Part shown: positions 3,283 to 49,689 of the stretch, piece after piece
Position numbering within the stretch: position 1 is the stretch's first letter
Layout: each line of letters begins with the position of its first letter
DNA from: a virus
Length of the DNA stretch: 64,000 bases
Reading direction: 5' to 3' (one strand)
IMG/VR virus record: IMGVR_UViG_3300009370_000002
Position numbers and translations under genes: made by a program
The notes under the pieces: model-generated
Told to the model about the DNA's origin: nothing
Database searches by the model: none
Seen by the model: the letters and a program-made list of their open reading frames with translations, nothing else

Positions 3283-3500
3283 GCCTCCCTGAAGATTCTT
3301 ATATAACCTTCCATTGTTGTTATGCCACCAACATGGTAGCCCAAATCATATTGGTTGATTATCTTTGATACAATCGTTTTTAATCGGCTTGAGTTGCCTG
3401 TTATAATTTTCATTTCCTTACCCCAATTGGTATTGATAAACTTATGGCATTTGTGTGGTACGTCTTCATATCTCACGCCATGTAAGTCCAATTCATTCAC
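3279..3500 (-). CDS. Hypothetical protein, 73 aa
   Basis: ATGA overlap with the primase stop, GGAG Shine-Dalgarno. Confidence 0.7.
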   Translation of the reverse strand: MNELDLHGVRYEDVPHKCHKFINTNWGKEMKIITGNSSRLKTIVSKIINQYDLGYHVGGITTMEGYIRIFREA

Positions 3501-4435
3501 ATTATTCTCCTTAGCTCATCCATCAAGAAATAGTCATCATGGTCAATTGCTTGAGCCATCTGTTTTCGAGACAAAAAAGTACGTAGCGGCATTTCGGCGA
3601 TGTCCTCAAAGCCACTCGTATCAATCTTATAGAGTTCTATATCATAGTATAACATATTTTTGATGATTTGTCCAGTCTTTTTTTCAGCATCTTTGTCAAA
3701 TGCCATGTAGACTGGTGTATCGTTGAGGGCAATAGCTTGGAATAGTTTTGTCTTGTCTCGGAGAGTTGAGCCCAGAACGGGGATAGCGTTTTCCCCAGCC
3801 GCTATGGCATCAAAAACGCCTTCTACGAGAGTGATGGGCTCATCCCAGTCTACGTGGAGTTCGTTGAAAATAATGTCCTTCTCAGCCGGGGGGTTGAGGT
3901 ATCTCCACTTATGTCCAACATAGGAACGAGCGATGAAATAATTCACATCTCCGTTGTTATTGAAGGAGGGGATGATGATCCTGCCTCCATATCTACCCTC
4001 TGCACAATAGCCAATCTTCCATCGGAGAATCTCCTTCTTTGTGATGTCTCTGCTCTTGAGATAATCGAGAGCTTTCTTGGATGAACGAGGCAGATGTTTG
4101 TTGCAGAGCGAGATAAACTCCTCGGGGAGAGGAACCGTCTGTTCTTCCTCTATGTTATTGATTTCATTGAAGATTTCGTCAAACTCTGATAAGTCGAGTC
4201 TACCTTCAAGTTCAAGCCACTTCTGTCTCTGCTGGTATGATCCGAATTTGCGAACGATACGATAAGCGTTCTTGCCTCGCCTGTCGCAAACCCAACAATG
4301 CCAACCTCGCTTGAGATTGATTGCAAGCTTCTTCTTGTGATGATTGCAATACGGACAATGATAGTAGAGTTCTCCACCTTGAGGGGTGTTGGGCCTTCCA
4401 AGAATGTCCGATAATATTCTAATCTTTTGTTCCAT
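3497..4435 (-). CDS. DnaG-type DNA primase (zinc finger + TOPRIM)
   Basis: CPYCNH..CWVC zinc finger, YLKSR-x-I..W-x-IGY, GRIIIP, TOPRIM LVEGVFDA and FDKDAE. Confidence 0.9.
   Translation of the reverse strand: MEQKIRILSDILGRPNTPQGGELYYHCPYCNHHKKKLAINLKRGWHCWVCDRRGKNAYRIVRKFGSYQQRQKWLELEGRLDLSEFDEIFNEINNIEEEQTVPLPEEFISLCNKHLPRSSKKALDYLKSRDITKKEILRWKIGYCAEGRYGGRIIIPSFNNNGDVNYFIARSYVGHKWRYLNPPAEKDIIFNELHVDWDEPITLVEGVFDAIAAGENAIPVLGSTLRDKTKLFQAIALNDTPVYMAFDKDAEKKTGQIIKNMLYYDIELYKIDTSGFEDIAEMPLRTFLSRKQMAQAIDHDDYFLMDELRRIM
3646..3674 (-). promoter_or_regulatory. Candidate sigma70-type promoter inside the primase gene (TGGACA-N17-TATACT, extended -10 TG)
   Basis: Shares AAAAATATGTTATA with the promoter at 7788-7816. 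Would drive the SbcCD fusion and the two small ORFs upstream of it. Confidence 0.4.
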
Positions 4436-4604
4436 TTATCACCTCCAAGTTTTCCACTCGTACTATTTCAACTCTTCCATCTGTCATAAGAACATAAGCC
4501 GCCACACAATACACAACATCCTGTATCTCTGTAACTATACCAATACGGCCATCATTCCCGTTGGGAACCCACTGATCACATTTTACCAAATCACCTATCT
4601 TCAC
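4419..4604 (-). CDS. MKIGDLV-family small SH3/KOW-like protein (array member 12), 61 aa
   Basis: GTG start after GGAGGTGAT. MKIGDLVKC..GRIGIV..NLEVING. Confidence 0.8.
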   Translation of the reverse strand: MKIGDLVKCDQWVPNGNDGRIGIVTEIQDVVYCVAAYVLMTDGRVEIVRVENLEVINGTKD

Positions 4605-4987
4605 TTATCACCTCCATCCGGTTCTTTTTCTACTCTATAGAAGGCAACAACATCATAAATATCGTTGCATGTCTGACCGTGTGCATATGCAATACCTCGC
4701 CAATTGCAATCGCCTACATCTGTGTCTGGGTGGCAATCTCTTTTGATTTCGCCCATAGAAGTCTCAACCCAACAATCTAGATGATCGACATCACATTGCA
4801 CCGCACTAATAGTTACTGATGCGCCCGGATAACCCTCCTCTGCCATTTCTTCATACTCTTCACATTCCCAAGTAACGTCTGATATATATACTGCTTCATA
4901 ACCTGGATGGTATGAAGACGTAGGAATATAGAACCCTTCACATGATGATAGTACCAATGATGCTATAATATATTTATCTATTTTCAT
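4601..4987 (-). CDS. Putative lipoprotein, Cys-rich and acidic, 128 aa
   Basis: N-terminus MKIDKYIIASLVLSSC resembles a lipobox, GGAGG SD. Confidence 0.65.
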   Translation of the reverse strand: MKIDKYIIASLVLSSCEGFYIPTSSYHPGYEAVYISDVTWECEEYEEMAEEGYPGASVTISAVQCDVDHLDCWVETSMGEIKRDCHPDTDVGDCNWRGIAYAHGQTCNDIYDVVAFYRVEKEPDGGDK

Positions 4988-5196
4988 TTTTTCCTCCCAA
5001 CTGCGATTACGTCACCCTCTTTGCACTTACGAGAGTAGACATGTATTGTCGTGGGCGAGTACTTATGAAACAAAGAATCATAAATCTCGATTGTGCATAC
5101 GCCCTTTTCTGCTTTGTCTACTGTTCCTATGATTGTGTATTCAACCTTGGGCTTTGAGTGCGCCAAGCATCCCACAAATAATAATATGTTAATCAT
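4984..5196 (-). CDS. Small exported/lipoprotein-like hypothetical protein, 70 aa
   Basis: MINILLFVGC N-terminus, GGAGGTGAT SD, ATGA overlap. Confidence 0.6.
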   Translation of the reverse strand: MINILLFVGCLAHSKPKVEYTIIGTVDKAEKGVCTIEIYDSLFHKYSPTTIHVYSRKCKEGDVIAVGRKK

Positions 5197-5383
5197 TTAT
5201 CACCTCCAAATCTTGACCAAACTTGAATACTGTGCCGCCATCGGCAATCCAATAAACCTTCCAACCATATTCTCGTGAACGAGCAATGATGACTCCAACT
5301 CGGTTTTCAACCTCTTGGGGGCTGTACTCGACATTTTTCCATTTCTTCCTTAGTTTTACCAAATCACCGATTTTCATTTTCAA
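5189..5383 (-). CDS. MKIGDLV-family protein (member 11), 64 aa
   Basis: MKMKIGDLVKL..VGVII..VYW..DLEVIND. Confidence 0.8.
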   Translation of the reverse strand: MKMKIGDLVKLRKKWKNVEYSPQEVENRVGVIIARSREYGWKVYWIADGGTVFKFGQDLEVIND

Positions 5384-5537
5384 AATAACCCCCCGTAACC
5401 ACCTCTAAGTTGGTAAAGTAAGTCCACTTAATATTAGCGGTTTCCGACTCATAAATATGTATCACATGTCCGTCTATAGCCACAACTATGCCAATGGCAT
5501 TACTGCGTTTCCAGCGCACTAAATCACCCACCTTCAT
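5364..5537 (-). CDS. MKIGDLV-family protein (member 10), 57 aa (not in ORF track)
   Basis: Translated by hand: MKVGDLVRWKRSNAIGIVVAIDGHVIHIYESETANIKWTYFTNLEVVTGGYFENENR*. GGAGG SD. Confidence 0.8.
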   Translation of the reverse strand: MKVGDLVRWKRSNAIGIVVAIDGHVIHIYESETANIKWTYFTNLEVVTGGYFENENR

Positions 5538-5709
5538 TGACTACCTCCAAATATTCTATTTTGTATTTTGAGTGCCCTCCGTGGCACCAAACAACCCAAA
5601 CTATTTCATCTATATGGGTGCCGCCCTGTCTTGGCCAATGTTCCCTTCTTGATGTCACCACACCAATCCTATGGAAATACTTACACCTTACTAAGTCTCC
5701 GATTTTCAT
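5524..5709 (-). CDS. MKIGDLV-family protein (member 9), 61 aa
   Basis: MKIGDLVRC..IGVV..VVW..YLEVVNEGG. Confidence 0.8.
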   Translation of the reverse strand: MKIGDLVRCKYFHRIGVVTSRREHWPRQGGTHIDEIVWVVWCHGGHSKYKIEYLEVVNEGG

Positions 5710-5863
5710 TTATCTTCTCCATGTGCTTTTCAGGCGCCATTATCATTATAAGATTTTCAATCATGGCAATCACCCACCACCTTGTATCTCTATCACGAAT
5801 ACTATACTTATTTAATATAATAGCATAACCACCATTATAACGAACCAAATCACCGATTTTCAC
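5681..5863 (-). CDS. MKIGDLV-family protein (member 8), 60 aa
   Basis: GTG start, MKIGDLVRY..MEKINENRR. Confidence 0.8.
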   Translation of the reverse strand: MKIGDLVRYNGGYAIILNKYSIRDRDTRWWVIAMIENLIMIMAPEKHMEKINENRRLSKV

Positions 5864-6032
5864 AGTATGCCTCCAAATGATATACCTGTTCCCACTCTAC
5901 GGTACCAGCACTAAACCAATAAACCTTAATAAACTTAATCCACCTTGAGTCAAGCTGGAGTATTATACCGCAACCATGATAAAGCTCGTTATCGTTTCGA
6001 GCACATACCAAATCACCAACTTCAAACTTCAC
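5850..6032 (-). CDS. MKIGDLV-family protein (member 7), 60 aa (start revised from 6080)
   Basis: GTG AAG TTT GAA GTT GGT GAT TTG: MKFEVGDLVC..CGII..VYW..HLEAYCENR. Confidence 0.75.
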   Translation of the reverse strand: MKFEVGDLVCARNDNELYHGCGIILQLDSRWIKFIKVYWFSAGTVEWEQVYHLEAYCENR

Positions 6033-6177
6033 CAACCAATTCCAAGCACTGTTCAAGGACAATGGACTCTCTGCCATCATCCCACTCTACCAATATCCAC
6101 CAAACGCTATGCCTGAAGACTGGCCCTTTAGATATTCCAATACCATCTTTGAACTTTACTCTGGTTCCCACTTTCAT
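6022..6177 (-). CDS. MKIGDLV-family protein (member 6), 51 aa (start revised from 6237)
   Basis: GGAGG SD before ATG 6177. MKVGTRVKF..VEW..CLELVGEV. Confidence 0.75.
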   Translation of the reverse strand: MKVGTRVKFKDGIGISKGPVFRHSVWWILVEWDDGRESIVLEQCLELVGEV

Positions 6178-6197
6178 ATTCTTCCTCCGATAAATTG

Positions 6198-6225
6198 AAT
6201 ATAACACGTTTAGAGATTCTGTCAA
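6198..6225 (-). promoter_or_regulatory. Sigma70-type promoter within the array (TTGACA-N16-TATATT, TG extended -10)
   Basis: Lies in the only gap between consecutive genes of the array, directly upstream of SD+ATG 6177. Confidence 0.6.
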
Positions 6226-6226
6226 A

Positions 6227-6439
6227 TTAATTTCCAACCAGCACTAACCATTTTTCTGCATATGGTTTTGTTTCATTCGTGGCTGGGAAATGTATATCCC
6301 ACATAACAGCGCCCCTATCATATGTAACCTCAAGTATTTCCCTCCAGCCCAATTGCCTCACGATTATGCCTACTTCATCTGGTTCATATGAGAATACTGC
6401 CACTCTCACCAAATCCCCCAATTTAAACTTCGGCTTCAT
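6227..6439 (-). CDS. MKIGDLV-family protein (member 5), 70 aa
   Basis: MKPKFKLGDLVRV..VGIIV..WLVLVGN. Confidence 0.78.
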   Translation of the reverse strand: MKPKFKLGDLVRVAVFSYEPDEVGIIVRQLGWREILEVTYDRGAVMWDIHFPATNETKPYAEKWLVLVGN

Positions 6440-6578
6440 ATGGCTCTAGATTCAAAACCCACTCACTCTTTGTTGTGCCATCCAACTGCAAAACATACCA
6501 GACTTTTTTGGCAACCTTTCGAATTAAAACCACCGGCTGTCTTTCTATCATTGTCTGTACCAGATCACCTACTTTCAT
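6423..6578 (-). CDS. MKIGDLV-family protein (member 4), 51 aa (not in ORF track)
   Basis: Translated by hand: MKVGDLVQTMIERQPVVLIRKVAKKVWYVLQLDGTTKSEWVLNLEPYEAEV*. Confidence 0.78.
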   Translation of the reverse strand: MKVGDLVQTMIERQPVVLIRKVAKKVWYVLQLDGTTKSEWVLNLEPYEAEV

Positions 6579-6729
6579 GCACTACCTCCAAATTGGAAAT
6601 TGGTTCCATATAAATATATTCTTTTCCTGCCCACAATACTTCCACAAGACACTCGCTTATTACCCCAACAACCAACCCAAAAGCTATATGGCTATCTGAG
6701 GCAAAGCGAACCAAATCACCGACCTTCAT
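6565..6729 (-). CDS. MKIGDLV-family protein (member 3), 54 aa (not in ORF track)
   Basis: Translated by hand: MKVGDLVRFASDSHIAFGLVVGVISECLVEVLWAGKEYIYMEPISNLEVVHESR*. Confidence 0.8.
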   Translation of the reverse strand: MKVGDLVRFASDSHIAFGLVVGVISECLVEVLWAGKEYIYMEPISNLEVVHESR

Positions 6730-6883
6730 TGATTACCTTTAAGTATTTTTTTTCTTCAAACTCTGTTTGTGGCTTGTCACCAGGCTTCCATTTAACAACG
6801 ACGATTTCGCCCATCAAGTGTACAATTTCGCCTGTTCCAAGGGCGGGTCTCCATTTCCTTATAACTTTATCTCCGATTTTCAT
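6716..6883 (-). CDS. MKIGDLV-family protein (member 2), 55 aa (not in ORF track)
   Basis: Translated by hand: MKIGDKVIRKWRPALGTGEIVHLMGEIVVVKWKPGDKPQTEFEEKKYLKVINEGR*. Confidence 0.8.
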   Translation of the reverse strand: MKIGDKVIRKWRPALGTGEIVHLMGEIVVVKWKPGDKPQTEFEEKKYLKVINEGR

Positions 6884-7064
6884 TTACCACCTCCAAATCT
6901 TCTATTCTAACGTTTTGAATTGCGTTATAGTCTATCCAATGCACTGTGGCATATTTTTTGTCTATTATTGCGATAACTGTCCCGTATCCATACATTAACT
7001 CTGGTGCCTTGTATGGGCTGGCGTCTATTACCAATGAGCCAACTTTTATGGTGTCTTCTTTCAT
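6867..7064 (-). CDS. MKIGDLV-family protein (member 1), 65 aa
   Basis: IKVGSLV..GTVI..VHW..DLEVVNENRR. Confidence 0.75.
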   Translation of the reverse strand: MKEDTIKVGSLVIDASPYKAPELMYGYGTVIAIIDKKYATVHWIDYNAIQNVRIEDLEVVNENRR

Positions 7065-7091: not shown

Positions 7092-7250
7092 TTATTTTGA
7101 TTGATTTAAATAATTATTAAAGCAAACATAAGTAAACACACCACTCAAGGCACACCAAAACCAACTTGAAGTTGCAAATGCAAACCAAAAAAAATAAAAG
7201 TTAAGTACGGCACAAAACAAACTTACCCATTTACTGTTTAAAAAATTCAT
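7092..7250 (-). CDS. Small hydrophobic membrane protein, 52 aa (not in ORF track)
   Basis: MNFLNSKWVSLFCAVLNFYFFWFAFATSSWFWCALSGVFTYVCFNNYLNQSK*. AAGGAG SD, ATGA overlap with the RuvC stop. Confidence 0.7.
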   Translation of the reverse strand: MNFLNSKWVSLFCAVLNFYFFWFAFATSSWFWCALSGVFTYVCFNNYLNQSK

Positions 7251-7780
7251 CTCGACTCCTTTTCAATAAGTAGTCCTGCTCTGGCAATAACAACAGAATC
7301 TGCCATATCATCGGTTCCAGGCTTGGGGTTTCCATATCTTGTATACTCAACAACAAAATCTTTTGGATACTGATTCTGCGCCCATTCAATGACTTTGAGC
7401 TTTGTATTTTCACCCCTCTTTATTTTCAAACCAACTAACCCACGGGCTTTGTTTGCCGCTATCAATGTTGCCGAAGTTCCATACAGGTTTCGTACCATCC
7501 ACGATACCATACCATTAAAACGCTGGAGTTTTGCCATTGTCATTGCAGTTGTCTTCCCTCCAGAAAACATTATGAATGGTGCCTCAATATATATTTCTTT
7601 TATATAATATTTGTTATAATTAATTTGCAAATATCTCTCTAATTCAAAACATCTATCTTCTAATGTGCCTTTAGAGTTTAGTTTAATTACTTGACAATCA
7701 AGTAAGTCTGCGTTAGAATTCAGTATGGTTATGCCAACCTTGCTTGTACTAACATCCAAGCCTAAAATAGTTTCTTTCAT
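7247..7780 (-). CDS. RuvC-like Holliday junction resolvase
   Basis: ILGLDVSTSKVG, IYIEAPF and DDMADSVVIA acidic catalytic motifs. Confidence 0.85.
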   Translation of the reverse strand: MKETILGLDVSTSKVGITILNSNADLLDCQVIKLNSKGTLEDRCFELERYLQINYNKYYIKEIYIEAPFIMFSGGKTTAMTMAKLQRFNGMVSWMVRNLYGTSATLIAANKARGLVGLKIKRGENTKLKVIEWAQNQYPKDFVVEYTRYGNPKPGTDDMADSVVIARAGLLIEKESR

Positions 7781-7787
7781 AACTTAC

Positions 7788-7816
7788 ATTATAACATATT
7801 TTTTGTGGATTGTCAA
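7788..7816 (-). promoter_or_regulatory. Perfect-consensus sigma70 promoter TTGACA-N17-TATAAT with extended -10, probably giving a leaderless mRNA
   Basis: -35 at 7811-7816 and -10 at 7788-7793. ATG 7780 lies 7 nt downstream with no SD. Confidence 0.8.
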
Positions 7817-7819
7817 ATA

Positions 7820-8422
7820 TTATTTCAAACTTGCTCTTTGAAAATTGCTTAACCCTTTCTGTAGTTCTGGGTTTGTTTGTTGTGCGTAGTCTAAAGCGCC
7901 GGATGCCTTATCGAGTGCTTGCTGGCCGGTGAAGTTGCCTTCTATGCTACTGTTGTTTGGCGCTTTGACTTTCAAGGTGGCATGTGCATCTGCTCCGGAA
8001 ACCTTCGAGAGAACAAAAAGATACTCCAAACCATTATCGCACCGAATATCAATAGAGAGTTCTTTGCCTGTGACTTGTTGCGTTTTCATCGCAACCTCTT
8101 CCAAGCTCATCTTGCACTCTTCTGTTGTCATTTCCATCATCGAAGTTTGAATCTCTTCGCCGGCATCTGACATCTGTGTGGATTTTGCTGCTGTCATTGC
8201 TTTGTGTACGTCACCCTTTTGGATTTGAGTATTTACGATTTGGTTTTCAACATTCCAATTTTCAACTGCTGCTTTGGCTACATTTGGAGCAAATCCAGTT
8301 TTGGCGATAAGAAGCCCAACGATGAGTTCCTTCAAAGTGATTTCATCCAATTGTTTCTTTTCTTTTGCGTCTTGTATCTCTTCGTTAATAATTCGCTTCA
8401 AATCTTCGCTAGTAATGTTCAT
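7820..8422 (-). CDS. Hypothetical, possibly virion-associated protein, ~200 aa (start revised from 8464)
   Basis: AAGGA SD before ATG 8422. N-terminal ITSEDLKRIINEEI..LDE followed by a hydrophobic stretch. Confidence 0.7.
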   Translation of the reverse strand: MNITSEDLKRIINEEIQDAKEKKQLDEITLKELIVGLLIAKTGFAPNVAKAAVENWNVENQIVNTQIQKGDVHKAMTAAKSTQMSDAGEEIQTSMMEMTTEECKMSLEEVAMKTQQVTGKELSIDIRCDNGLEYLFVLSKVSGADAHATLKVKAPNNSSIEGNFTGQQALDKASGALDYAQQTNPELQKGLSNFQRASLK

Positions 8423-8450
8423 TTTCAAATTCCTTTTGACATTAAATAGT

Positions 8451-9698
8451 TTAAAGCAAGTCATACTTCAACTTAAACGTCAAGTCTTTGTCTTCTTCTT
8501 TTCGATAAGGGCGAGCAGTTTCAGCTACCATAATCAAATTGTCATGCTTATCATATATGCCTATCTTTGTGATATATGTAGTCTTCGCAAATGTAGCATC
8601 ATGCCCAACATACGAAGAAGACACCACATTCTTAATTGGAGACTCAAATTCATGATAATGCATAGATGAAGTTTGAACGCTGTTATAATCGGTTGCCGTT
8701 TGATCCAAAAAGGTTGGACTATTTGACCAATTATACTCACCCTTTTCAGCGGAACAGATAAGCGTCATTGTATTTTTATACGAAATGCCTTTGAAATTCA
8801 TTGAGAAACTAGCAGACGCCAAGGTAGCATGATGTGTTATGCCATCGTTTGCACCGGCTCCGAACCATCGCCATGACGCTGAGGCGGCTGATGAAGCATC
8901 ATATATTATTGAATTTCCACTGTCTAACGCAGGAGAAATAAAGTGATTTGCTGTGAATGCGTTACCTGCTGTGGAGGACGAAGGAAACACAAATACACCT
9001 TCATCGTAATAAACCAACCCAATAACTGAGCCTGAGTTCGAGCCATAATTCTGGATGAGTTCTCCATTTTTCCTATCATCAATTGCTGATGCTATTAGTG
9101 TTCCTGTGATGAAGTACTTAAGAGTGACGGAGCCCTTATTTATAGACGAGCCATAAAATATCGATGGAACATTAATCATATTCAAAGAGTCACTTAACAC
9201 CTCATCTTGAAGCAAGAACCTCTTACTGTGAACTGAATATTTTTGCTTTCCAACATTATAAAGAGATCTTGCCCTTTTGTTCTCAATATGCGTTGTGTTA
9301 TTTCCAAATGTATGAGTCGATGCAGTAGAATAAATTCTTGTAATGCTAGCGGACAAAGGATAGCTTCCTGTCACAATGGTGCTGAAGTGAGTCTTCTCTT
9401 GTCCATACGGAGGAATATAAGAGAAGGAATTAAGATTGCTTCTTAAGTCCAGGTTAAAGCCTCTCTGAACAAACGGATATGCCAAGTTTGCTTTTTGACT
9501 TGGATCTCTATTGATGTTTAATTCATAGAGACTTACATACCCTTTTGGAACATTCTTATATGTTGCATCTTTGGAGCCAGATATGTTAGGAGTTCCATCC
9601 AAGTATACTTCAGAGTTATAAATGAAGAAGTCCAGTTCTGGGTGCATCTTCAATCGATTAATGAAAATACCGTCATTTCCAAAAAGCTTTTTAGGCAT
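8451..9698 (-). CDS. Virion structural protein with a tail-collar (DUF3751-like) C-terminal motif, 415 aa
   Basis: YITKIGIYDKHDNLIMVAETARPYRK. Paralog of 9698-10831. Confidence 0.65.
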   Translation of the reverse strand: MPKKLFGNDGIFINRLKMHPELDFFIYNSEVYLDGTPNISGSKDATYKNVPKGYVSLYELNINRDPSQKANLAYPFVQRGFNLDLRSNLNSFSYIPPYGQEKTHFSTIVTGSYPLSASITRIYSTASTHTFGNNTTHIENKRARSLYNVGKQKYSVHSKRFLLQDEVLSDSLNMINVPSIFYGSSINKGSVTLKYFITGTLIASAIDDRKNGELIQNYGSNSGSVIGLVYYDEGVFVFPSSSTAGNAFTANHFISPALDSGNSIIYDASSAASASWRWFGAGANDGITHHATLASASFSMNFKGISYKNTMTLICSAEKGEYNWSNSPTFLDQTATDYNSVQTSSMHYHEFESPIKNVVSSSYVGHDATFAKTTYITKIGIYDKHDNLIMVAETARPYRKEEDKDLTFKLKYDLL

Positions 9699-45441: not shown

Positions 45442-46632
45442 TTATTCTGTTATATAACCATACGGTCGTCTGCCGTGTTTGTACTTTTTCTTATCTTTCG
45501 GCAAAAGAGTCCACCCTATCAACTCTGGTTCCTTTAGTGGGTCAACAGGGCAAAATGGAGTGTCTTTTTTACACTTGAGTGTTCCTGGCTTCACGCCTTT
45601 CCCTCTTTGCTTTAGATAGTTCTTTTCCCACTCTGCTTCGTTGATTTTCGTTGTATCCAGCTTAGTACTAGCATTCACTGGTTTCCAAATTTCCAAATGA
45701 AGGTGTCCTCCAGTGGAAACACCAGTGCTACCTACAGCGCCAATCACATCCTTTTGAGACACGGAAGCCCCAACCTTTAGCGATGAACGCTTCTGCATGT
45801 GGTTATACATCGATATCAAGTTTTCCTTTTGGTGATAAATTTCAACAGAATTACCATAACCACCACTATATCTGTTCCTCACTACAATCCCATCCAATAT
45901 GCAAACTATTGCAGTACCTTGTTTGCCATAATTTGAAAAATCAACTCCGGGGTGCCACTTTCTTCCTACTTTGACATTTCTATACCCATGTCCAGAGGTT
46001 TGATAAAATTGGGGAGAAGGAACCGGTAACCAAGCCTTGTCCCAACCAGAAGGAGGTTGAATCGAGCCTGGCTTATATACTGGTGGTTTTCCTTTTTTGA
46101 ACTTTTCTTCAGATCCTTGTCCATCGCCAGAGCCATAAGAGGTACCTTTAAGTGTCAGAGATTTGTTGAGCGCCAATTTGATAAAATATGTGCCACCCAA
46201 ATTGAGAACCAAAACTGACGCTCCGAAAGTCGGTAATACTTCTACGCTTTCCGTATATGCAAAAAGCATCGTATCAACCAAGGATGCCCTATCGGCTTTT
46301 GTTTTTTTGTTACGAATGTCCCCATAACAATCAGTAGGAGATGTTACATTTGTTGCATAGGCAGAAGACATTATTTGTATCCTGACTTTGTATCTGCCAA
46401 CGCCGTCCCCCAAATCAACAATTTCAGCAGTATGAAAATATTGCCGAGATTGATTTTTAGTGGGCACTAGCTGTGAATTCTCACCTGACAATACAATCCC
46501 ATACCACAAATCGCTTGTGTCTGAAAACAAAACATCTTCAACGGTATCAAACCACCTCGCAACATCATCGGAAAACGTTCCCCTTTTCCTCTTTGGGTGA
46601 TGAGGATTCTTACTTTTATCATATCCTGGCAT
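45442..46632 (-). CDS. Tail-associated M23 family peptidase with an N-terminal gp5-OB-like domain, 396 aa
   Basis: WHPGVDF (HxxxD), YNHM and GGHLHLE (HxH). N-terminal domain shared with the two adjacent genes. Confidence 0.85.
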   Translation of the reverse strand: MPGYDKSKNPHHPKRKRGTFSDDVARWFDTVEDVLFSDTSDLWYGIVLSGENSQLVPTKNQSRQYFHTAEIVDLGDGVGRYKVRIQIMSSAYATNVTSPTDCYGDIRNKKTKADRASLVDTMLFAYTESVEVLPTFGASVLVLNLGGTYFIKLALNKSLTLKGTSYGSGDGQGSEEKFKKGKPPVYKPGSIQPPSGWDKAWLPVPSPQFYQTSGHGYRNVKVGRKWHPGVDFSNYGKQGTAIVCILDGIVVRNRYSGGYGNSVEIYHQKENLISMYNHMQKRSSLKVGASVSQKDVIGAVGSTGVSTGGHLHLEIWKPVNASTKLDTTKINEAEWEKNYLKQRGKGVKPGTLKCKKDTPFCPVDPLKEPELIGWTLLPKDKKKYKHGRRPYGYITE

Positions 46633-48101: not shown

Positions 48102-49406
48102 TTACTCCGTTATATAACCCAAGGTGCAATTGCTCACTTTGCCCTTTCGTTCCTTATTAATCCACTTACATGTTCGAGTTCCCTTTTTTCCGGGCTTTCT
48201 TGGTATTACCGTCCAGCCAATAATCTCTGGGATTGTGGTTGGATCCACTTCATGGAATGGTGAAGTTTCAATGGGGTCGAATGTTTCGTGTGCCACACCA
48301 GGACCAATTTGTTTTTGGTATATATCATACCAATTTTTATCTCCAATCTGGCTTGTATCAATCACGTTGTTTCCGTTATTAAACTTTTTGTTTGGAATCC
48401 AGACTTCAAAGTGAAGATGCGGGCCAGACGAACTACCTGTCGAGCCGCAGCCAGCTACAACCTGGCCCTTTGTTACTTTATCTCCAACTTTCAGTGTGGT
48501 TTTGCCTTGGATGTGGTGATATCTAGAGATGACGCCTGGACCTGGGTGCCACAAATGAACTTGGTTTCCAAATCCACGGTGTCCTTTGCCACCAGTGCCT
48601 TTACCGCACCCTGGTGACTCGACAGCGCAAGATTTTACTGTTCTCACAACAATGCCATCAAAAATTGCAAATATTGGACTGCCTAGCCCTACCGCCAAAT
48701 CCATTCCTGGGTGGAATCTTCTGTAGACACTTCTCTGCTGGAAAGCAGAGGTGATCCTCATTGTTGGTACTCGCACTGGGATGTGCGCCTTTGTCCAGCC
48801 TTCGGGCATTTTTGTGTCTCCCTTTCTCATTTTTCCTGGTGTCCATGACCCTCTGCCAAAATCATCCTGGGAGCCTGTGCCTTCTCCTGTTCCTGTTCCT
48901 GTGCTGGACACTAAAGCAGTGCCACCGACACTCTTAATAAACCAAATACCACCCCGCTCAACAACCTCAATTCGACACAAATATGTCAATTTCATTTGCA
49001 TACCTCTGATATCACTATAAGCATATGGTTTAGATTTTATTCTACTCTGACGAGTTGCTTCTGATATTCCAGATTCAAAAGGATTTTTTCCATAACTTTC
49101 AGTGAAAGCTCTACCAACATCTGTGTCATATGCTTCTTCTTCTATTGACCAGCGTATTTTCCACCGGGCAATACCATCATCAAATGAAACAAGACTAAAA
49201 TCATTGGTAAATCGCCGACTCTTCCCAGTTTGATTAGTCTGTCCGCTAAGGCACACTGCTTTGTATGACTTTCTCTTTTGTGGTGTAAGTGCGTTTATTT
49301 CATTATCATTATGAACTGAATCGATAGCCCTATCGGCAGCATTATTAATTCCACTTCCAAAAGGGTTATTCCACCCACTTATGTAATTCTTAGACCAATC
49401 ACCCAT
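48102..49406 (-). CDS. Tail-associated M23 family peptidase with the shared N-terminal domain, ~434 aa
   Basis: FHPGMDL, YHHI and GPHLHFE. C-terminal VDP..PEIIGWT..GYITE* matches 45442-46632. Start could be 49415 or 49406. Confidence 0.85.
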   Translation of the reverse strand: MGDWSKNYISGWNNPFGSGINNAADRAIDSVHNDNEINALTPQKRKSYKAVCLSGQTNQTGKSRRFTNDFSLVSFDDGIARWKIRWSIEEEAYDTDVGRAFTESYGKNPFESGISEATRQSRIKSKPYAYSDIRGMQMKLTYLCRIEVVERGGIWFIKSVGGTALVSSTGTGTGEGTGSQDDFGRGSWTPGKMRKGDTKMPEGWTKAHIPVRVPTMRITSAFQQRSVYRRFHPGMDLAVGLGSPIFAIFDGIVVRTVKSCAVESPGCGKGTGGKGHRGFGNQVHLWHPGPGVISRYHHIQGKTTLKVGDKVTKGQVVAGCGSTGSSSGPHLHFEVWIPNKKFNNGNNVIDTSQIGDKNWYDIYQKQIGPGVAHETFDPIETSPFHEVDPTTIPEIIGWTVIPRKPGKKGTRTCKWINKERKGKVSNCTLGYITE

Positions 49407-49689
49407 CCTCTTCACCTGATATCATTTCAAAAATATTTTTAACCTCTTCAGAAGATAGACCAGATTCTTTCTCTTGCTTTGACATCAAACCAACAACCTT
49501 AACTAACTGCTCATTTGAACGCTGAAGCGTTTCAACATACTTCGCCATAACTACGCCAACTTGCTGGTGTCGGGACTCATCTTTAGATAGCCACTTGATA
49601 GCATCATCAAGCAATTCCTTGGTTATCTCTCTGTCTTTGCGAATATTTTCTACCACTTCGGTAATGTACTTGTCTGTCTTGAAACTCAT
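49399..49689 (-). CDS. Hypothetical coiled-coil protein, 96 aa
   Basis: Coupled ORF containing KYVETLQRSNEQLVK. Confidence 0.7.
   Translation of the reverse strand: MSFKTDKYITEVVENIRKDREITKELLDDAIKWLSKDESRHQQVGVVMAKYVETLQRSNEQLVKVVGLMSKQEKESGLSSEEVKNIFEMISGEEDG

Follow-up and report, generated by a model that had tools for sequence, protein, structure and literature searches.

How does a phage genome come to carry a dozen related small genes, most of them running into the next, and how do their number and order change between close relatives? The question is raised by positions 4419-7064 of the IMG/VR virus record IMGVR_UViG_3300009370_000002, of which a stretch of 64,000 nucleotides (nt), here called the window, was analysed. 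A sequence-only reading of this DNA had described twelve genes of 51-70 amino acids (aa) joined by a dual-coding junction of ~30 nt, and had proposed that whole genes are gained and lost there. Based on our analysis, the locus is likely a run of translationally linked single-domain KOW/SH3-like barrel genes in a variable (hyperplastic) region, with genes swapped at the junction repeats. Under this scenario, the phage's own recombination would act on junction repeats of 6-20 nt, within one genome or between co-infecting genomes, and would delete, insert or exchange whole genes while retaining the reading frame, the Shine-Dalgarno (SD) sequence and translational coupling. The outcome would be a common stock of barrel genes numbering in the hundreds, old and each conserved in its own right, of which each genome holds a different set of 15-27.

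Twelve genes of one family

The window genes are all on the minus strand, and the twelve members (m1 to m12) lie between a RuvC-like gene and the primase gene, along with a 52-aa hydrophobic gene and two further, unrelated ones (70 and 128 aa). When a profile was built solely from relatives outside the window, it matched exactly these twelve among the 626 stop-to-stop segments of the window (E-values of 5e-16 to 3e-4) and no further segment up to E = 10. In the alignment, members begin with M-K-[IV]-G-D-L-V or a near variant, continue with G-[IV]-[IV] and V-x-W, and mostly end in L-E-V-[IV]-N. That the genes are real follows from the ratio of nonsynonymous to synonymous substitution rates (dN/dS), which is 0.175 when pooled over 32 independent ortholog pairs, with none above 0.45. 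The same low ratio speaks against the earlier description of the genes as hypervariable, if that is taken to mean fast diversification. Their middles, which had been called unrelated, are instead diverged: gene bodies of the window members have a mean identity of 28% and a maximum of 47%.

Two starts were corrected. The start of m6 is now placed at the ATG of MKVGTRV, at 6177. That of m7 is most likely the GTG at 6032, giving MKFEVGDLV as in the 65-aa relative P0031; longer ATG starts at 6077 or 6080 are possible. The features of the locus, in the direction of transcription, are as follows.

7788-7816 (-): sigma-70-type promoter-like site, 12/12 matches with an extended -10, directly upstream of the RuvC-like gene; candidate early operon promoter
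7247-7780 (-): RuvC-like resolvase gene (phrog_159, 5e-12); conserved upstream flank, 60-83% identical in relatives
7092-7250 (-): 52-aa hydrophobic small protein, not a member, between the RuvC-like gene and the array
6867-7064 (-): m1, 65 aa, family member with N-terminal extension MKEDTIKVGSLV
6716-6883 (-): m2, 55 aa; 74.5% identical ortholog near the primase end of the L006 array
6565-6729 (-): m3, 54 aa, modelled as a five-stranded barrel
6423-6578 (-): m4, 51 aa, lowest profile score of the twelve (E 3e-4)
6227-6439 (-): m5, 70 aa, atypical C-terminus, followed by the sole member-to-member gap
6198-6225 (-): promoter-like site, 11/12 matches, ~20 nt ahead of the m6 start
6022-6177 (-): m6, 51 aa, corrected start, family profile match
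5850-6032 (-): m7, 60 aa from the GTG, 11-nt overlap with m6
5681-5863 (-): m8, 60 aa, same barrel topology in its model, with a disordered overlap-encoded tail
5524-5709 (-): m9, 61 aa; 62% identical ortholog in L002
5364-5537 (-): m10, 57 aa, family profile match
5189-5377 (-): m11, 62 aa; 90% identical ortholog in L002, directly abutting the primase there
4984-5196 (-): 70-aa non-member with a lipoprotein-like N-terminus (FVGC); uses the upstream half-junction of m11
4601-4987 (-): 128-aa non-member with a lipoprotein-like N-terminus (lipobox-like LSSC); the GGAGGT of m12 lies in its 3' end, read in another frame
4419-4604 (-): m12, 61 aa, GTG start, 17-nt overlap with the primase start
3497-4435 (-): DnaG-like primase gene, conserved downstream flank

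The 70-aa and 128-aa lipoprotein-like genes thus sit within the array and borrow the half-junctions of their neighbours. The 70-aa protein has a 52% identical relative in L001, one of the collected loci.

The overlapping junction

On the coding strand the junction has the consensus TTG-GAG-GTN-NTN-A-ATG-AAA-RTC-GGT-GAT. Its TTG-GAG-GTN encodes L-E-V, the last strand of the upstream protein, and at the same time supplies the GGAGG SD sequence of the next gene, 6 nt before the ATG. The upstream frame runs on as N-E-x-R and ends at the TGA within GGT-GAT, the Gly4-Asp5 codons of the next gene, which gives a typical overlap of 14 nt. Nine of the ten member-to-member joints of the window overlap (by 17, 14, 14, 17, 11, 14, 29, 14 and 14 nt; exactly 14 nt in five), as the dual-coding junction of the sequence-only reading would have it. 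The tenth, between m5 and m6, is a 49-nt gap containing a promoter-like site. Across the collected loci, the overlap is exactly 14 nt in 123 of 222 distinct pairs of consecutive members.

The N-E-x-R tail is a by-product of this arrangement, since m9 has GGA-GAC in place of GGT-GAT and m8 therefore just extends to a 29-nt overlap; in the m8 model the overlap-encoded tail is the sole part of low confidence. In the 128-aa non-member, GGAGGT is kept before m12 in another frame, where it encodes G-G, so that nucleotides are what is conserved there.

The junction, of ~33 nt, is nearly the only DNA similarity between paralogs. A degenerate pattern of it has 6 matches in the window at up to 3 mismatches and 0 in 100 shuffles. 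Among pairs of junctions from the same array, 27% share an exact match of at least 12 nt and 13% one of at least 16 nt, compared with 18% and 7% for pairs from different arrays and ~0% for other gene starts. In the window, the shared match reaches at least 12 nt in 8 of 66 junction pairs and 19 nt at most. No attC-like or other stable hairpin was found at the junction; six junctions fold no better than shuffles (z-scores of -1.4 to +0.7).

Codon usage in the junction is strongly biased. Gly4 is GGT in 86% of cases (29% in gene bodies), the Glu of L-E-V is GAG in 94% (42%), Lys2 is AAA in 84% (50%) and Val3 is GTC in 64% (20%), while the Leu of L-E-V is NTG in 82%. The SD sequence and the TGA stop explain the Gly4, Glu and Leu biases; that of Val3 retains Arg in the upstream tail, or reflects homogenisation. 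Such biases raise the possibility that the junction is conserved solely by combined constraints (two strands, SD, start and stop), with ordinary illegitimate recombination and selection for whole genes but no preferred site. The GAG and NTG biases suit the SD and the GGT bias suits the stop, the overlapping genes leave no neutral intergenic space, and orthologs are under purifying selection, all as that explanation would have it. The higher share of exact matches of at least 16 nt within arrays than between them points the other way, as do the rearrangements described below; given both, we regard constraint without a preferred site as rather improbable.

It could also be proposed that the units belong together as the domains of a single repeat protein, whose gene is translated throughout by frameshifting or has since decayed, as the family profile does match long proteins in which the domain occurs in up to 17 tandem copies. 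However, each unit has a start codon of its own (ATG in 78%, GTG in 20%) 6 nt past GGAGG, overlap lengths are fixed and the reading frame shifts at each joint, dN/dS is 0.18 per unit, and gene callers call the units as separate genes on independent assemblies. This alternative is therefore scarcely credible, and the units are better read as separate, translationally linked genes.

Turnover of whole genes between relatives

Relatives whose primase is 85-90% identical carry 4 to ~15 members between the RuvC-like gene and the primase, with partial synteny, displaced orthologs and other inserted genes; the ortholog of m2, for example, is located at the opposite end of the array in L006. In lineages with primase identity of 68% or less there are no members at the RuvC-primase site, and the arrays are found elsewhere. 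Copy number and order thus vary among relatives as had been predicted, and in the syntenic comparison the breakpoints lie at the junction, content being fixed among contigs of the same strain.

Individual events end at the junction as well. Between the window and L002, a three-gene block of ~0.77 kb (the 70-aa gene, the 128-aa gene and m12) is present or absent with TTGGAGGTGAT at both borders, so that in L002 the m11 ortholog (88.5% nt identity) abuts the primase. L086 and L087, which are 99.5-100% identical, differ by a one-gene indel of 176 nt between exact 20-nt repeats encoding M-K-V-G-D-L-V. L115 and L106 (99% identical) differ by a one-gene indel of 232 nt with the crossover within a 13-nt repeat, and between L106 and L133 the indel is located at the start codon. 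All indels between contigs of 95-100% identity are of whole genes and, where the crossover is resolvable, it lies in a joint repeat of 6-20 nt. L096 and L136 have one gene in common at ~96% identity with unrelated flanks, the homology stopping inside both junctions, and L129 and L146 show the same pattern. More broadly, 82 of 139 non-redundant ends of homology blocks in arrays fall between -15 and +25 of a member ATG, where 20% were expected (p = 4e-23). The remaining ends are mostly one gene length off, almost none being in gene interiors, and no truncated or chimeric member was seen among the 139. The gain and loss of whole genes at the junction, as proposed from the sequence alone, is therefore upheld by both homology blocks and indels.

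Several points weigh against a role of the junction as a preferred site. Much of the synonymous bias is accounted for by the SD sequence, the start context and the overlapping stop, and needs no role in recombination. Because of the overlap alone, whole-gene rearrangements are forced to break in the junction, so selection would enrich junction breakpoints, and the ends of high-scoring segment pairs are partly attracted to the junction through its conservation. The resolved events number only four indels and two single-gene transfers. Same-strain contigs (98.3-100% identical, from seven places) have identical array content with no change in copy number; the 98.3% identical strain, L077, has a single difference within the array. 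On the other side, a real junction preference is favoured by the precision of the repeat-flanked events in near-identical genomes and by the absence of chimeras. Were constraint the whole explanation, the loss of one accessory gene out of 15-27 should allow imprecise deletions, if those were common, yet the recent indels are all precise and none of the 139 block ends lies in a truncated or chimeric member.

The members themselves are, as judged from their sequences, old, individually conserved proteins under purifying selection whose genes are dealt anew among genomes. Identity between window paralogs is 21-55%. Of 639 members, only 8 have a paralog of at least 60% identity within their own locus, whereas 157 have a relative this close in another locus. 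A rare recent duplication is seen in L083, where two minus-strand members (L083_7109- and L083_7593-), 484 nt apart, encode proteins of 87% identity.

The word accordion, used in the earlier reading, suggests another origin, namely that one gene was recently amplified in tandem under selection and its copies then diverged, in the sense of poxvirus K3L or T4 tifA. The tandem layout, the copy number varying between relatives and the one within-locus pair of 87% identity in L083 would agree with it. However, since the paralogs are old and under purifying selection, cassette turnover rather than a recent accordion accounts for the array, and since same-strain contigs from several samples share identical content there is no fast accordion either. 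Recent amplification is thus largely refuted, and we consider it very improbable. Overall, the readings rejected for this locus are chance open reading frames, a polyprotein, a recent accordion and an integron. Exchange of old genes at junction repeats is the reading retained in what follows.

Fold of the encoded proteins

Small barrels of the KOW/SH3/Tudor kind had been anticipated for these proteins, and structure prediction agrees. The AlphaFold2 model of m3, made with a family alignment of 128 sequences, is a five-stranded barrel with a predicted local distance difference test score (pLDDT) of 93, and the model of m8, the most aberrant member, has the topology of m3 at a pLDDT of 87.5, so that these two members share a fold in their models. 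In structure searches, the m3 model matches the KOW domain of Spt5 from M. jannaschii (Z 8.9, root-mean-square deviation 2.0 over 54 residues) and, at Z 7-8, eL14, the SH3 domain of Hpy99I, UBE2O, PsaE and MIB1; Foldseek gives template modelling (TM) scores of 0.74-0.84. The m8 model matches HspQ, the PcrA Tudor domain, eIF5A and CarD-type barrels. At the sequence level, the family profile matches PDB chains of Spt5, MIB1, HERC2 and NusG, the Spt5 chains being reached at E 2e-6 only via summed weak repeats.

None of the twelve members matched the curated models of KOW (PF00467, at E up to 1 or 0.1) or SH3_15 (PF18346). The family profile matches the public protein P0001 at 4e-45, and P0001 matches SH3_15 at 7e-71, which indicates a sequence-level link to the SH3_15 domain of Mind bomb that is superfamily-level kinship only. 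A search of the ESM Atlas returned unnamed clusters only, the named neighbours (UBE2O SH3-C, DsrB, R67 DHFR and DUF4314) all scoring below 0.9, and a fold search of BFVD returned only uncharacterised viral mini-proteins. By these models, the members are predicted to be small KOW/SH3/Tudor-like beta-barrels outside any curated family.

Spread of the family and the carrier phage

Further loci were collected from IMG/VR by scans with two versions of the junction (77 further loci) and by anchoring on the primase. The 88 collected loci hold 731 members, of which 640 are distinct, at up to 23 per 10 kb, and five near-complete records of 184-284 kb carry 15-27 members each in one or two clusters. In the closest near-complete relative, the L007 record (G001), a second, larger cluster of ~14 members lies at ~150.5-161.6 kb, far from the RuvC-primase site. 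The phage of the window probably has more members beyond its 64 kb.

The family profile matches 1811 cluster representatives among 1.84 billion at E of 1e-3 or less; singletons of 50-65 aa are numerous, and there are also some long proteins of up to 17 repeats. In the public proteins P0001, P0003, P0005 and P0038 the barrel domain is repeated up to 17 times in a single chain. P0003 also bears a Tad2-like domain (Thoeris anti-defence), and four other multi-repeat proteins bear DUF3310.

The carrier is, from its gene content, an uncultured large myovirus; its genes include those for a baseplate wedge protein and an SbcCD-like nuclease. No close cultured relative was found, the top primase identity being 32%.

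Expression and possible function

A scan for the sigma-70 consensus over 348 kb of array regions found 87 sites with at least 11/12 matches on the array strand and 7 on the opposite strand. Very strong sigma-70-type promoters (TTGACAA...TGnTATAAT), nearly all on the array strand, occur in L086, L090, L093, L107, L124 and other loci, and some of them have a GC-rich hairpin in the spacer, e.g. CCCGCAACGGG. Elements like the promoter-early stem-loops (PeSLs) of T4-type phages may thus coexist with the coding junctions. The strand bias suggests that the array is probably transcribed early by the host polymerase from sigma-70-type promoters, as hyperplastic regions are in T4-type phages.

The ligands of such barrels are RNA polymerase, ribosomes, RNA or peptides. 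The charge of members ranges from -16 to +12 and the interquartile range of their isoelectric points (pI) is 4.9-9.0; the core is fixed and the loops differ. The varied charge, the differing loops and the differing gene content of close relatives would fit diversified binders, which the sequence-only reading had suggested might be anti-defence or host-takeover factors. The proteins are tentatively proposed to be early host-directed binders with a fixed barrel core and diversified loops and surface charge. Against this proposal, searches of Pfam and PHROGs gave no significant match for any of the twelve members; a Pfam scan of 83 multi-repeat homologs gave no informative partner domain, the one Tad2-like fusion and four with DUF3310 being too few; and BLAST at the DNA and protein levels against 50,697 phage records (cultured or deposited) returned no match for the region or for m3. 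The promoter-like sites, moreover, are consensus matches only.

With the same anatomy and turnover, the proteins could also act on the phage itself: they might assist in the virion or its assembly, serve as nucleic-acid chaperones or regulate phage RNA. Common binding partners of KOW, LSm and Tudor-type barrels are RNA, ribosomes and RNA polymerase, and the array adjoins structural and replication modules, both consistent with a phage-directed role. However, the range of charge and pI gives no uniform nucleic-acid-binding character, content that varies greatly between close relatives is unusual for parts of a conserved machine, and the promoter bias suggests early rather than late expression. 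We consider a phage-directed role unlikely, and the proposal of host-directed binders, itself tentative, is the one followed here. A broader form of it, offered as a speculation, is that the dual-coding junction is maintained as a recombinase-free cassette site through which co-infecting large myoviruses would trade single genes out of a common library of hundreds of conserved small-barrel binders, each aimed at a different host factor or defence; the 15-27 barrels of a genome would then be a rapidly re-dealt host-range or counter-defence hand.

Other genes of the window

Two further observations concern genes outside the array. At 45442-46632 (-) and 48102-49415 (-) the window encodes neighbouring paralogs whose C-terminal halves resemble M23-type metallopeptidases or endolysins (PHROG matches at 1e-19 and 1e-22). 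A second multi-copy family, of unrelated proteins with the common start M-x-[IL]-T-x-E-[EQ]-L-x-x-I-I-x-E, is found in the window at 7820-8464 (-) and in several copies in the same variable region of relatives (L001, 6856-7209; L003, 2337-4266; L004, 5072-7389; L005, 1644-2722 and 9494-9868).

Comparison with known systems

Like an integron, the locus is an array of small, promoterless, swappable genes bounded by a repeated site. The sequence-only reading held that neither an integrase nor attC would be needed, and this stands: a search for tyrosine integrases (PF00589) found none in two relatives of 92% and 100% completeness, there is no attC-like hairpin, and in contrast to an integron the array consists of one family whose genes overlap in coding sequence.

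As proteins, the members resemble the KOW, SH3-like and Tudor barrels (Spt5, the NusG KOW, eL14, SH3_15 PF18346, CarD/Mfd/PcrA) in having five strands, 50-60 residues, a first strand with G-D-x-V and a second with G-hydrophobic-V. They differ from these in falling below all Pfam thresholds and in being stand-alone, phage-encoded and multi-copy. Tevenvirinae encode the LSm-like early proteins GoF, MotB.1 and Frd.2 (Kim et al. 2025, PMC12152347). Those too are small beta-barrels from several diverged early genes of T4-type phages, with functions unknown or related to RNA. However, they are three dispersed genes per genome for which no shared junction is described, whereas the arrays here count 15-27 members of another barrel subtype.

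At the T-even ip locus, as reportedly described by Repoila and co-workers in 1994, variable genes share an N-terminal capsid-targeting sequence, and modular exchange is said to have been proposed. The likeness is that variable genes share a conserved 5' coding leader. On the ip proteins, which are unrelated to one another, the leader functions in targeting and cleavage, whereas the 5' end of the array genes encodes the first strand of a common fold.

T4 amplifies and deletes DNA at microhomologies of 6-10 bp (dmd-tifA; Srikant et al. 2022, PMC9391042), and poxviruses have genomic accordions (Elde et al. 2012, as cited in PMC9391042). In both, as proposed for the array, recombination at very short repeats alters copy number in a large lytic virus. 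Accordions, however, are recent amplifications of identical units under acute selection, while the array consists of old conserved paralogs with the repeat built into every gene; instead of near-identical tandem copies and copy variation within a population, the paralogs are 21-55% identical and seven same-strain contigs are alike.

The closest precedent is PeSL-mediated cassette shuffling in the hyperplastic regions of T4-type phages (Arbiol et al. 2010, PMC2839356; Comeau et al. 2014, PMC4122927), where the repeats bound indels and yield mini-circles in RB49 and phi1 (PMC2839356). In both systems the genes flanked by the short conserved repeat are small and non-essential and lie in variable regions of large myoviruses, no dedicated recombinase takes part, indels and replacements that distinguish close relatives end at the repeat, as found here, and an incoming gene brings its own expression signal. 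The PeSL repeat is an intergenic unit of ~100 bp with a sigma-70 promoter and a terminator hairpin that flanks unrelated ORFans. In contrast, the junction is ~33 nt of overlapping coding sequence with an SD and no hairpin, it joins genes of one protein family and it keeps them translationally coupled; the intergenic promoter and stem-loop of a PeSL is not its repeat, and the array region of the window has just two promoter-like sites. The suggestion that the system is undescribed therefore holds in part: repeat-mediated shuffling of cassettes has been published as PeSLs, while our literature search found no description of this family or junction.

Besides PeSLs, the array would be a second route to swappable gene cassettes in large lytic phages, one in which the repeat is the joint of stop, SD, start and first strand, so that each gene travels with working translation signals and no recombinase. 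It also brings to light a family of stand-alone KOW/SH3-like mini-proteins that is large (640 distinct genes, 1811 database clusters, 15-27 per genome) and so far uncatalogued. Conserved orthologs that are dealt differently to each phage are the pattern expected of host-interaction or counter-defence genes, and the family offers a synthesizable set to screen.

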